Of a stretch of DNA of 64,000 nt, positions 8,410 to 13,508 are shown in pieces. Position numbers and translations under genes: made by a program. Position 1 is the stretch's first letter. Every line of letters starts with the position of its first letter. Below the pieces are notes generated by a model, which ran no database searches, was not told where the DNA came from, and worked only from the letters and a program-made list of their open reading frames with translations. Source of the stretch: Streptosporangiaceae bacterium (GTDB lineage Bacteria; Actinomycetota; Actinomycetes; Streptosporangiales; Streptosporangiaceae); NCBI GenBank assembly GCA_036267135.1, contig DATAWQ010000079.1, forward strand, positions 9,342 to 73,341, in the 5' to 3' direction.

Positions 8410-10761
8410 TCAGGGGGGTGGAGGTAATGAGGCAGCGGCGGCCGGAACCGTTAGGACCGCGGGGGCGGGACCGCGGACGGCCGGCTGGGCGGGGCGGTAG
8501 CGGGCGACCAGGCCCGGCTCGGTGTAGCGGGGGGTGGCGGCGTGCCAGTTGACGATGCCCGCCATCCAGTTCTGCAGCTCGGTGGCGCGCCGGAACACGG
8601 CTTCGCTGGCGTGCAGGCCGAGCTGGTGTTCCTCGCACAGCGCGGGCAGCCCGACGGCAACGATGTGCTCGAACTGGCGCATCCGCTCGGTCATCAGGTT
8701 GTTCACGATCCCGACCGCCTGGTCGCGGTTGCAGCCGAAGAAGTTCTGCACGGCCAGGACGGTGTTGTGCAGCTCGCCCTCGAACTCGGTCTCCTTCTGG
8801 TAGGAGAAGATGTCGTTGAGCAAGCAGGCGTAGTCGCTGGCGGTGTCTTCCATCACCTGGATCGTCTTGGCCGCACGGACCTCGGGTGGCAGCGAACGGC
8901 CGGGGGCGAGCTGGGCGAGGGCCATGGTGAGCTTCGAACCGAAGGTCTGGCGGCGCATCTCGACGCAGTCCACCGGGTCGGGGATCCGGTGCAGGATCTC
9001 GCCCGCCACCTCCCAGAGCCAGCTATCGGTCATCTCGGCGACGGCCCGCTGGAACCGCTGCCTTTGCGCAGGGGTCATCGGCCCGGCGGTGCGGGCCCAC
9101 AGGTCGGCCAGCCCGCGCTCGATCGGGTTGGCCGGGGCCGCCTGCGGCCCGGTGGCCGCAGCTGTGGGCATGAACGCGAGCAGCCGCTGGTTCTGGGCCT
9201 TGGCGGCGGCCATGTTCCTGGCCCGGCCGAACATTGCCGGGTAGTAGTCGTCGGCGTAGGTTCCCCAGATCAGCCAGTCGGCCGAGAGGTCAAGTTCCGA
9301 TTCGCCGCAGTCCGGGTCGAGGCCGGCCGCGCACAGGGCGAAGTCGAAGGACCGCAGCTCGTCCTCCCGCCACAGCACCCCGCGGGGAGCACCTGGCACG
9401 GGATCGAGGAACCCGATCCGCGTGGACCAGGTCATGACGTGCTCGCGCGCGGTGTCCAGGTTCGGATTCAGCCGCAGCGGGAAGGGCATCCGGAATTCGG
9501 GTAGTGGGGTCGGGCCGACCGGCTGGAACGCCGGGGCGGCGAAGCTGGCGATGCGCCGCAGGGAACTGGCGGCCGGGAAGCGCGCGGCTGCCGTGCCAAG
9601 CCCGGCAGGGGCGCCGGCCGGCCCGGCGGCCTGCCCGCCGCTGTTCATGTACCGGCTGGACCGCAGGTGCCACTCGTGGCCACCGGCCTGCCAGTCCTGC
9701 AGCCCCTTGACGTAGGCCGTCACGGCCGCCTGCTCCGGCGGGGGCACGGCGTGCTCGGCGAACAGCGGGGGCAACTCGGTGATCGCGGTGTGCTCGAACT
9801 GCTGCAGCCGGGAGGTCAGCAGGTCGTTCACGGCGTCGGCGGCCTGCTGCGGGCCCAGGCCGAGGAACCGCTCGAACACCAGCACGCCGTTGTTGACCTC
9901 ACCCTCCTGCTCGGTCTCGCGCTGGTAGGAAAAGATGTCGTTCCGCAGGTGGACCGCGTCGGCGAACGTGTCGCACAGCACCCGCAGCGGGCGGGTCGCG
10001 GCGATCGGGGCGGGCACCTCCGCGCCGCAGGCGTGCTCGACCAGGTTGGCCGACCAGGGCGCGCCGCCGACCTTGCGCCGCATCTCGATGTACTCGATCG
10101 GGTTGGCCACCCGTCCCTGGCTGATGTTGGTGAGCTCCCACAGCGACTCGTTGAGCAGGTTCCTCGTGGTGGTCGCGAACCTGTCCCGCCAGGCCGGCGA
10201 CATCGCCGGGACGGTGCGCGGCCATAGGTCGGCCAGGCCACGCTCCACCGGGTTCTCCGGCTCCGGCGGTTCGCCCCCGCGGGCCGGCATGAACGCCGCC
10301 AGCCGGTCCAGATATGCCTTGGCCGCGGTGGTGTTCCTGGTCCGCTTGAACAGTTCGAGGAAGTGGTCGTCGAAGTAGAACACCCAGACGTACCAGTCGG
10401 TGATCAGGTTCAGTTCCTGGCCGTCGCAGTCGGGGTGGGTGTAGGCGCACAGCAGCCCGTAGTCGTGCCGGTCCAGGTCGCCCTGGTCCCAGATGTGGTG
10501 GCCGCCGGCGGGTTCGAGGAAGCCCATCTCGCGGGCCCACCGCGAACTGTGCTCGCGCGCGCCGGCCAGGTGCGGGTTCAGCCGCGCGGGGTAAGGCAGG
10601 TAAAAGGCGGGCAGCTCGAAGGGCTGATCCTGGCGGGGAGGTCCGCCGGCCGCCCCGCCGGAGGACCCGGCGGGGCGCGACGGAATGGGTGTGGGGGCGG
10701 GTGGGCCGGCGGGCTTCGCGCGTGGAGGCAGGCCGGGCGGCCCCGGCAGCGTGGTGGCCAT
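8410..10761 (-). CDS. geoA: Germacradienol/geosmin synthase (two-domain class I terpene cyclase) with a Pro-rich N-terminal extension
   Basis: 783 aa. N-domain [22 protein letters not shown] (10354-10371), [10 protein letters not shown]-domain [25 protein letters not shown]. The layout is colinear with characterised Streptomyces geosmin synthases. Confidence 0.95.
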
Positions 10762-10767
10762 GGCCGG

Positions 10768-12171
10768 TTAGCTGCGCGGCAGGGAAACTTCGACATGGTC
10801 GAGGATGCCGAGCGCGTCAGGAATGAGGACCGCGACTGAGTAGTAAGCGCTGACCAGGTAGGAGATGACCGCCTTTTCGCTGATGTTCATGAAGCGGACG
10901 TTGAGGCCGGGTTCGTGCTCGTCCGGGATCCCGGTCTGCTGCAGCCCGACGACACCCTGGTCTTCTTCACCCGTCCGCATGGCGATGATCGAGGTGGTGT
11001 GCCCGTCGGTGAGCGGGATCTTGCCGCACGGGAAGATCGGCACGCCGCGCCACGCGGGTACCTGGCCCCCCGCCACCTCGGTGCTGCTGGGGTAGATGCC
11101 GCGCTTGGTGCATTCGCGGCCGAAGGCGGCGATGGCCTTGGGGTGAGCGAACATCATCTTGGTGCTGCGCCGCCTGGACAGCAGTTCGTCGAGGTCATCG
11201 GGGGTGGGCGGGCCTGAGTGGGTCGCGATCCGCTGGGAGTAGTCGGCGTTGTGCAGCAGCCCGAACTCGCGGTTGTTGACCATCTCCCATTCCTGCCGCT
11301 CCCGCAGCGCCTCCACGGTCAGCCGCAACTGCTGGGTGACCTGGTCCATCGGGTCGTTGTACAGATCCGCGACCCGGGTATGCACGCGCAGCACTGTCTG
11401 CGCCACCGCCAGCTGATACTCGCGCGGGTTCCGCTCGTAGTCCGCGTACGTCCCGTCCAGCTGCGGCTCCCCGTCATGCCCGGAGGCGATCGCGATGTCC
11501 GCCTCGCCGTGCTTGTTCTGCGATTGGGCCTTCGCCTCGTGATGCTCTCGAACCTGTGCCTGCAGCGCCTCGGATTGATCCGCGATGGACCAGAAACGGT
11601 CCTTCCGCAGCACCAGCAGCGTCGTGCCGGTCTCGGCCACCAGCGTGTGGTCCCAGACCACCTCCCCGATCAGGCCCTCCATGCCCAGATACGCGCCGTC
11701 GCCGATATGCCCCAGCGCGGTGTCCCCACCGAACTTGCCCTCTCCCCGGCGGTGTATCTTCCCGTGCGCGACCACGAAGAACTCGCCCTCCGGCTGCCCG
11801 CGCTCGGCGATCACATCTCCGGCATTCACCTCCCGCTGCTCGAACGCCCCGGCCACCGCGGCCAGCACGTCGTCGTCCTCGAACCCGGCGAACACCGGGA
11901 CCTCGCGCAGGCTGGGCGGCACCACCGAGACCTCTTCCGCGGTCTGCGCCACGGCTACCAGCCCGCCGCCCACCGCATAGGTCATCCGGCGGTTGACCCG
12001 GTAGGTCCCGCCCGACACCTGAACCCACGGCAGCATCCGCAGCAGCCAGCGCGATGTGATCCCCTGCATCTGCGGAACGGTCTTGGTCGTGGTGGTCAGG
12101 TTCCTGGCGGCTTCCGTGCTCAGGCTCTGCCGCGGCTCCTGGGCGGTGCCGTTGGTTGCCTCAACAGACAT
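10768..12171 (-). CDS. Family 2B encapsulin shell protein (HK97-fold type with an inserted cNMP-binding-like domain; EshA-like)
   Basis: 467 aa. Family-2 N-terminal signature [33 protein letters not shown]. Residues about 88-196 resemble a cyclic-nucleotide-binding beta-roll (FAGF...[22 protein letters not shown]...LLVLRKDRF). GGAGG lies 7 nt before the ATG. Terpene cyclases flank it on both sides. Confidence 0.88.
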
Positions 12172-12251
12172 TTGCTGCCTCCATATATTCGGCGAGGGGG
12201 ATTACGTCTTTGGCGAACGGGATCAGCGCCGGGTGAACGGGGAACGACTGG

Positions 12252-13508
12252 TCACTGGTAACGGCTGGTGGTGCGGTGCCATTCGAACCCCCCACCCATC
12301 CAGGCCTGCGCTCCGCGCAGAAACCGCTGGAGCTCAACGGACGGCAGGGCCGCGAGCTGGCGCTGGCTGGCCTCGAACCCCCGGACGAAGTCGTTGTGCA
12401 GGGCCACGGTGCGCTCGGTCGCCTCCCGGATCGTGCAGTTCTCTTCCAGGGCGATCAGCAGCACCAGGTTGGAATCCGGCAGTTCGTCCGCGGCCTCCCT
12501 GGCCACCGAGTAGAGGTCGTTGACGAGCACCGAAGCCGTGCCGGCCTGCATCAGCGCCCGGTGGAAACGCCGTTCGGCGAACAGGTTCGCGGGCAGCTCG
12601 TAGCCGCCGACGACGTCGATGAGGGTCATAGAGGTGTAGAAGCTGTCGTGCTGGCGGGCGGCGAGGTAACGCCACACCGGCGGCGGCTGGCCGAGGAACC
12701 GCCAGGCCGCGTAGGCGGTCCAGCTCACGTACATCTGGCTGGTGGTGTTGCAGGCCCGCATGACCTGCGCGGGGGTGGCGTGCCTGGACAGGTGGGCGGT
12801 GGCCGAGCTGAGCGCGACGAGCACGGGATCGGACCGCACCGCGTCCTCGAGTTGGCGGGTGTAGTCGCCGGCCGGCGGTGGCGGGTCCATCGCGGACGTC
12901 ACCAGGGCCAGCCGGGGAGGAAGCTCGGTGGGGGTGGCCCCGAGCGGCGTCTCGTCGGCGTAGTAGTCGTCCGCGGCCCACCAGGCAGCGTTCATCTGGG
13001 CCGCGATCAGCAGCCTGTCGGGGTCGTCGGTGTCGGCATGGGTGAGCATGGCCAGCCGGCCGAAGCCGGTGTCGCGGAACTTGTCTATCCGGCCGGCGTG
13101 GATCCCGACCTTCTCCGCCCAGGCCACCAGCCGGCGGTTGACCTCCTCGCCCAGGTCCTCGTCGATGCGAACGGTCTGCGGACAGTACAACGGTGGGTAT
13201 GAGCCGTCGCCCCATTCCCGCTCCAGATACGGCAGCGGGGCGTAGATGTCCCTGGGCACGAAGTCGGGCTGGTACAGCGTGGCGGCCAGGTCGAACCCGG
13301 GCGGTTCCGGCGCCTCGGGAGCAGGCGGCTCCTCGGCGGCCGGGGGCGCCTCGGGAGCAGGTGGAGCCTGGGTAGCCGGCGGAGCCGCCAGGGTCGCGGT
13401 GGCCTGGGGCGCCCGCGTGGCCGCGGGGAAGCGGCACGCGGAGGTCCCCAGGCCGGACGGCCCGGCCAGTACCCCGGCGAGGTCCAGGCCGTAGCGGTCG
13501 TACCTCAT
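12252..13508 (-). CDS. 2-methylisoborneol synthase-type (C11) terpene cyclase with a disordered N-terminal region
   Basis: 418 aa. Metal-binding DDYYADE (12951-12971) and NDLYSVAREAADE, C-terminal WHRTTSRY. The first ~95 residues are Pro/Ala-rich. Its ATG overlaps the methyltransferase stop (ATGA at 13505-13508). Confidence 0.88.
   Translation of the reverse strand: MRYDRYGLDLAGVLAGPSGLGTSACRFPAATRAPQATATLAAPPATQAPPAPEAPPAAEEPPAPEAPEPPGFDLAATLYQPDFVPRDIYAPLPYLEREWGDGSYPPLYCPQTVRIDEDLGEEVNRRLVAWAEKVGIHAGRIDKFRDTGFGRLAMLTHADTDDPDRLLIAAQMNAAWWAADDYYADETPLGATPTELPPRLALVTSAMDPPPPAGDYTRQLEDAVRSDPVLVALSSATAHLSRHATPAQVMRACNTTSQMYVSWTAYAAWRFLGQPPPVWRYLAARQHDSFYTSMTLIDVVGGYELPANLFAERRFHRALMQAGTASVLVNDLYSVAREAADELPDSNLVLLIALEENCTIREATERTVALHNDFVRGFEASQRQLAALPSVELQRFLRGAQAWMGGGFEWHRTTSRYQ

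Follow-up and report, generated by a model that had tools for sequence, protein, structure and literature searches.

The window analysed here is a stretch of 64,000 nucleotides (nt) from a Streptosporangiaceae bacterium (GenBank assembly GCA_036267135.1, contig DATAWQ010000079.1). It carries four co-directional genes on the minus strand, in the order GPPMT–cyclase–Enc–GeoA, which overlap or abut one another. They encode a methyltransferase, a terpene cyclase resembling 2-methylisoborneol synthase (2-MIBS), an encapsulin shell protein and a geosmin synthase. A first-pass annotation of this DNA had noticed that the two cyclases share a 12-residue peptide, and had read the peptide as a docking motif for a Family 2 encapsulin shell. 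The genes and the two copies of the peptide are as follows (positions are those of the window; aa, amino acids).

13505..14413, minus strand: geranyl diphosphate 2-C-methyltransferase (GPPMT), 302 aa; NCBIfam NF041943, 528 bits against a cutoff of 400.
12252..13508, minus strand: 2-MIBS-like single-domain terpene cyclase, 418 aa, putative cargo 1; NF041167, Pfam PF19086.
13239..13508, minus strand: predicted cargo-loading domain of the cyclase, disordered and N-terminal, aa 1 to about 90; AlphaFold2, rich in Pro, Ala and Gly.
13419..13463, minus strand: predicted cargo-loading peptide in the cyclase, GPSGLGTSACRFPAA, aa 16-30; conservation among homologs, published GPxGLGT consensus.
10768..12171, minus strand: Family 2B encapsulin shell protein (Enc), 467 aa, with an insertion of the cyclic nucleotide monophosphate (cNMP)-binding fold; NF041163, PF19307, PF00027.
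8410..10761, minus strand: two-domain germacradienol/geosmin synthase (GeoA), 783 aa, putative cargo 2; two PF19086 stretches.
9568..9612, minus strand: predicted cargo-loading peptide CLP1 in the interdomain linker of GeoA, aa 384-398; conservation among homologs, GPTGLGTSAAR consensus.

GPPMT also matches Pfam methyltransferase domains. Its stop codon overlaps the start of the cyclase gene (ATGA), and the same 302-aa gene call is seen again on three metagenome contigs. At the other end of the cluster, geoA starts 6 nt past the stop of the shell gene.

By its matches to families and solved structures, the shell gene encodes a genuine member of encapsulin Family 2B. The SrpI-like domain (PF19307, E 7.8e-138) covers aa 213-463, and the cNMP_binding insertion (PF00027, 43.8 bits against a cutoff of 27.5) lies at aa 113-199. 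An internal insertion of this fold sets Family 2B apart from Family 2A. The NCBIfam model encap_f2b (NF041163) is matched with 726.7 bits against a cutoff of 400, and the protein aligns end to end with the solved Family 2B shells 9bix (E ~1e-182 to 3e-182) and 9bhu (E ~1e-177 to 5e-177). Residues L261, L282, F427 and Y438 are identical to the aligned L264, L285, F430 and Y441 of the Streptomyces griseus shell (Sg Enc), which form the luminal pocket at the three-fold axis.

The same shell gene is miscalled on several related metagenome contigs. In L081 (11869-12741), L082, L083, L085 and L091 the gene calls cover just 290-291 aa of the full 467-aa open reading frame; the cNMP-fold domain is missing from them, and a false ‘intergenic’ gap of 600 bp appears. 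Between the window (10768-12171) and contig L088 (6591-7994) the shell is 95% identical, but the identity of each of the two cargo enzymes is only about 78%. This difference suggests that the shell is unusually constrained or that its gene has been exchanged.

The cyclase matches the NCBIfam model f2_encap_cargo2 (NF041167) over aa 16-417 with 467 bits (cutoff 400), and its PF19086 domain spans aa 172-375. It has the metal-binding motifs DDYYAD (aa 180) and NDLYSVARE (aa 330). Its best match in the PDB is 4zq8 (E 2.5e-42), and the 2-MIBS structure 3v1v is matched with E 7.5e-40. Similarity to characterised 2-MIBS is thus only distant, and 2-methylisoborneol is a putative product. An identical protein is found on three Joint Genome Institute (JGI) metagenome contigs and in NCBI from a Streptosporangiaceae metagenome-assembled genome (MAG); NCBI already labels it a family 2 encapsulin cargo protein.

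GeoA matches the N-terminal domain of ScGS (PDB 5dw7) with E 1.8e-160. Both of its domains have metal-binding motifs: DDHFLE at aa 131 and NDIFSYQRE at aa 274 in the first, DDYYP at aa 504 and NDIFSYQKE at aa 649 in the second.

AlphaFold2 models of the two cargo enzymes, built on homolog alignments, were of good overall confidence, with mean predicted local distance difference test scores (pLDDT) of 80.1 and 85.2. For the cyclase, block means are 36-58 over residues 1-90 and reach 96 from residue 91. The peptide GPSGLGT (aa 16-22) lies inside this disordered N-terminal domain, where residues 16-49 all score below 50. GeoA is modelled as two ordered domains, with pLDDT below 50 at residues 1-24, 28-41, 375-400 and 759-783; the linker copy GPxGLGTSAAR (aa 384-394) falls within the third of these segments. 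The earlier placement of both copies in disordered segments outside the cyclase folds is therefore borne out.

The shared 12-mers are present as the first-pass annotation had reported them. Residues 19-30 of the cyclase, GLGTSACRFPAA (nt 13419-13454, minus strand), and residues 387-398 of GeoA (nt 9568-9603, minus strand) are identical at 10 of 12 positions. A related cyclase (P0021) has a 12-mer identical to the GeoA copy of the window. The two coding segments agree at only 24 of 36 nucleotides, and the same codon is used for only three of the 10 identical residues. The likeness is therefore not the product of a recent DNA duplication but reflects conservation of the protein, as had been proposed from the sequence.

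Both segments are rich in Ala, Gly and Pro, and the two genes are 1.5 kb apart, so low-complexity chance or recent gene conversion or duplication could in principle have produced the similarity. Duplication and conversion are ruled out by the codon comparison. For chance, we used a conservative test in which shuffling, with composition kept, was confined to the disordered segments rich in Pro, Ala and Gly in the two proteins, and the best 12-mer identity was scored. An identity of 10 of 12 was reached in 0 of 2000 shuffles; the maximum was 9, seen 13 times. Moreover, each copy matches the motif of its own orthologs. We regard this explanation as effectively refuted.

One part of the earlier description is not supported. 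The cyclase motif had been said to follow a segment, MRYDRYG, that resembles the RY-containing C-terminal end of a terpene cyclase domain and mirrors the position of SSRYMN before the GeoA copy. Eleven residues separate MRYDRYG from the 12-mer, and residues 1-7 are weakly conserved among the 56 homologs aligned (Y3 in 11/37, Y6 in 10/33). We dropped this analogy.

In these 56 cyclase homologs, the motif is the sole conserved island before residue ~90, and its flanking columns are unconserved. P17 and G19 are invariant, L20, G21 and T22 are conserved in at least 93%, R26 is found in 43/56 and P28 in 41/56. More broadly, 109 of the 120 closest MIBS-like homologs carry GP[ST]GLGT[SA]Ax[RH][FLIV]P in their N-terminal 170 aa. 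Since the R[FLI]P tail is common among these homologs, it is a clade-wide extension of the consensus and not specific to one genome; the clade form of the peptide is GPxGLGT[SA]A[AC]R[FLI]P.

The GeoA linker behaves in the same way. Across 49 homologs the motif is its only conserved island, with P385 in 46/48, G387 in 48/48, L388 in 44/48, G389 in 48/48, T390 in 41/48 and R394 in 42/48. The closest homologs, about 78% identical overall, have the linker GP[AT]GLGTSAARFPSA, with the RFP tail kept. In a separate GeoA (L001, 241-2532), GLGT is followed in the linker by about three tandem copies of a unit of about 10 residues (WSLRPPSIGS).

This peptide has been described before. In 2-MIBS-like cyclases, GPTGLGT is conserved in a disordered, unannotated N-terminal domain, and in geosmin-synthase-like cyclases GPTGLGTSAAR lies between the two domains and is repeated at the C-terminus; it was proposed that both motifs “may function as targeting sequences” (Andreas and Giessen, 2021, PMC8346489). 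Loading into the Family 2B shell of S. griseus requires the N-terminal cargo-loading domain of 2-MIBS, which was studied by deletion and segment mapping, and density for this domain was seen over L264, L285, F430 and Y441, on the luminal side of the three-fold axis (Andreas and Giessen, 2024, PMC11550324). GeoA of Myxococcus xanthus is an encapsulin cargo, with peptide loading and cryo-electron microscopy density at the three-fold pocket; mutating the linker copy (CLP1) and deleting the C-terminal copy (CLP2) leaves ~20% of wild-type loading (Fazal et al., July 2026 preprint, bioRxiv 10.64898/2026.07.21.739788).

The 12-mers of the window fit the published consensus GPxGLGTSAAR, which supports the shell-docking interpretation of the first-pass annotation. 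The shared peptide is the already published Family 2B cargo-loading peptide, and both the observation and its interpretation are known. Set against the Family 2 motif definition (PMC8346489) and the models NF041167, NF041168 and NF041163, ours is the same observation, with no difference in substance. The window adds to the published motif only the clade-specific extension R[FLI]P, and annotation pipelines already name such cyclases encapsulin cargo.

At this locus, the published peptide occurs in two copies, both disordered and selectively conserved, on either side of a Family 2B shell gene with a conserved pocket. We estimate a probability of about 85% that both 12-mers represent the Family 2B cargo-loading peptide, carried by cargo enzymes on either side of one shell gene.

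The closest known systems compare with the window as follows. Like the S. griseus system (Sg Enc/EshA; PMC11550324; PDB 9bhu), the window encodes a shell with an SrpI-like HK97 domain and a cNMP-fold insertion (phmmer E 5e-177) with conserved pocket residues, a GPPMT in the cluster, and a cyclase with a disordered Pro/Ala/Gly-rich N-terminal loading domain containing GPxGLGT. Unlike in S. griseus, the cyclase has only remote similarity to characterised 2-MIBS (E ~1e-40 to 3v1v) and its product is putative, the motif sits near the extreme N-terminus (aa 16-30) and has an R-F-P tail, and a geosmin synthase is part of the operon. With M. xanthus GeoA (10.64898/2026.07.21.739788) the window shares CLP1, GPxGLGTSAAR, in a disordered linker and an adjacent shell gene. 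It differs in having one shell gene instead of two, a decayed CLP2, an N-terminal LPGPP extension and a second type of cargo in the operon. The shell fold is also homologous to that of Family 2A SrpI (PDB 6x8m, E 2.6e-88), where the shell is without the cNMP-fold insertion and the cargo enzyme and conserved motif are different. The cysteine desulfurase cargo of SrpI, studied by Nichols in 2021, reportedly loads via a disordered N-terminal domain at the luminal three-fold pocket.

Several points weigh against the assignment as cargo-loading peptides. The loading experiments stem from homologous systems. In S. griseus, loading of 2-MIBS is better with the motif-bearing segment but does not strictly depend on it (PMC11550324), and in M. 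xanthus GeoA CLP1 and CLP2 each account for ~30% of loading (10.64898/2026.07.21.739788). GeoA of the window scores below the cutoff of its own cargo model, one relative with the same operon has lost the linker copy, and the motif is as frequent in GeoAs that have no shell gene nearby as in those that do. The last three are taken up in turn below.

A scan of species-representative genomes gave 80 GeoA loci, of which even the closest are no more than 68-71% identical to GeoA of the window. At least one G[LIV]GT copy is present in the linker or tail in 78 of the 80; the only ones without are the GeoAs of two Actinocrinis MAGs (L051, L065). For a test of adjacency, we took loci flanked by at least 8 kb in each direction, required the strict pattern P.G[LIV]GT and counted a shell gene within 10 kb as adjacent. 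The strict motif was found in 31/32 GeoAs with an adjacent shell gene and in 16/18 without; motif presence did not differ between the two groups. The first-pass annotation had held that equal conservation in geosmin synthases from genomes lacking such encapsulins would mark a generic linker feature. Judged by adjacency, conservation is indeed equal, in agreement with the preprint, where almost every GeoA without an adjacent shell gene retains the peptides (10.64898/2026.07.21.739788). Docking is not thereby refuted, because a Family 2B shell is encoded elsewhere in 88.3% of the genomes with such a GeoA (same preprint); for this reason the comparison neither refutes docking nor discriminates between the two views.

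The motif could then be unrelated to encapsulation and belong to geosmin synthase linkers in general, for instance as a hinge, a site for proteases or a contact between the domains. Besides its retention in GeoAs with no shell gene in at least 8 kb on either side, this would agree with the G-GT-AA kept in the linker of Streptomyces coelicolor GeoA and with the linker being a known site of proteolysis. However, single-domain MIBS-like cyclases carry the same motif at their N-terminus and GeoAs have it at their C-terminus, and at neither place is there a linker. Its presence at N-terminal, internal and C-terminal positions indicates a portable tag, not a linker-specific role. Mutating the motif lowers loading in M. 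xanthus (10.64898/2026.07.21.739788), and the shells encoded elsewhere also speak against this explanation, which we consider quite unlikely.

The other two points concern the set of tags in GeoA, which has two further elements.

8437..8472, minus strand: decayed remnant of the C-terminal copy CLP2, GeoA aa 764-775; alignment to the CLP2 columns of homologs.
10627..10761, minus strand: Pro-rich N-terminal extension of GeoA, 45 aa, candidate additional loading element; LPGPP at nt 10735-10749.

The remnant faces homolog columns in which the residues of GPTGLGTxAAR are conserved (G 45/46, L 39/46, G 44/46, T 42/46, then A, A and R). At the 3' end of geoA, GLGT is not encoded in any frame, and this frame search excludes a hidden copy of CLP2. 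The closest homologs (P0121-P0124, P0135, P0153) are also without the C-terminal copy, while more distant ones keep GPTGLGTxAAR. Against the NCBIfam model f2_encap_cargo3 (NF041168), GeoA scores 1146.7 bits, below the cutoff of 1200. This narrow miss fits the missing C-terminal copy, and with such a score NCBI-style annotation would give a plain ‘germacradienol/geosmin synthase’, missing the cargo status.

The N-terminal extension is shared by a clade of GeoAs, in which it is 25-60 aa long, Pro-rich and starts M[AT]TT[LMI]PGPPGLPP. In the 14 homologs that have one (including L001), P6 is conserved in 14/14, G7 in 11/14, P8 in 10/14 and P9 in 12/14. LPGPP is the alternative consensus of cargo-loading domains in ‘cluster 2’ of 2-MIBS (PMC11550324). 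An N-terminal element of this kind in GeoA is not described in the 2026 preprint (bioRxiv 10.64898/2026.07.21.739788).

In one GeoA from the same type of operon (P0124; L092, 4046-6385) a deletion has removed the linker motif (…SSRYMNSRYMNSPSASSLGLKR…), and only LPGPP at the N-terminus is left. This protein is known from just one metagenome contig, and an assembly artefact is possible. Taken together, the differences among these proteins hint at turnover in how many loading elements a GeoA of this clade has and where they sit.

These same observations (the decayed C-terminal copy, the deletion in P0124 and the score below the NF041168 cutoff) would also be expected if the MIBS-like cyclase were the only cargo and the GeoA copy an inherited relic, with GeoA cytoplasmic or loaded via other elements. 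Against this, geoA begins immediately downstream of the shell gene, the linker copy is kept in the closest homologs including its RFP tail, and the dual-cargo operon is conserved. We judge the relic interpretation to be very unlikely.

The operon itself recurs. The order GPPMT–cyclase–Enc–GeoA–bestrophin-like is found again on the independent metagenome contigs L088 and L092, with GeoAs ~78% identical to that of the window. Partial versions also occur: L084 has the same operon without GeoA, and L090 lacks the cyclase but has Enc–GeoA. Of the 80 genome loci, L080, from a Pseudonocardiaceae MAG, is alone in uniting both cargos, in the order Enc–GeoA–cyclase–GPPMT.

If the two 12-mers are cargo-loading peptides, the mechanism may follow that of the S. 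griseus and M. xanthus systems. By analogy with these, the peptide would dock during assembly in the hydrophobic luminal pocket at a T=1 shell's three-fold axis (L261, L282, F427, Y438). Binding would probably be heterogeneous, with several modes and low specificity, and the peptide would cooperate with other Gly/Ala/Pro-rich elements. Because it would act together with these elements, it would contribute to loading without being solely responsible. Both cyclases might be loaded into the same shell, competing for or sharing its 20 three-fold sites; this step is purely inferred.

The last gene of the operon and its surroundings are less directly connected to the peptide.

7643..8398, minus strand: bestrophin-like protein, 251 aa, at the 3' end of the operon; PF14023 on the called genes of relatives.

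The 251-aa protein has no NCBIfam match. A PF14023 bestrophin-like gene adjoins the shell and cargo genes in L081-L085 and L088-L091, also where the operon has no GeoA, and its product may act as an ion channel or transporter associated with the compartment. Just downstream of the operon, at 2060-5173 on the minus strand, lies a SARP/BTAD-type regulator of 1037 aa with AAA_16 and TPR repeats. A second SARP/BTAD-type regulator lies at about 5195-6037, an approximate position mapped from the 280-aa gene of L081. These two regulators may control the operon. A six-frame search of the window found no further tagged proteins. An extra GLGT match at 34085-34108 was dropped, as it lies in a non-coding frame whose G+C content at third codon positions is 0.58, against ~0.9 in real genes.

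Beyond the published work (PMC8346489, PMC11550324, 10.64898/2026.07.21.739788), the locus has a single shell gene between two tagged cargos, a lost C-terminal copy in GeoA and a conserved LPGPP extension. Mixed loading of two terpene cyclases and an N-terminal loading element in GeoA are not described in those three papers. We tentatively propose that an uncultured Streptosporangiaceae clade could have merged the two classic earthy-odour pathways in a single nanocompartment operon, with one Family 2B shell co-packaging a 2-MIBS-type cyclase and a geosmin synthase via the GLGT…R-F-P tag and the C-terminal copy of GeoA replaced by an N-terminal element of the LPGPP type; we hold this to be possible, though doubtful.

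As a natural example of one shell gene flanked by two differently built cargo enzymes with the same tag, the locus has modest interest. It could be used to probe co-loading of two enzymes by Family 2B shells and the sharing of the 20 three-fold sites. It could likewise serve to ask if LPGPP represents another class of loading peptide, able to stand in for GLGT copies.

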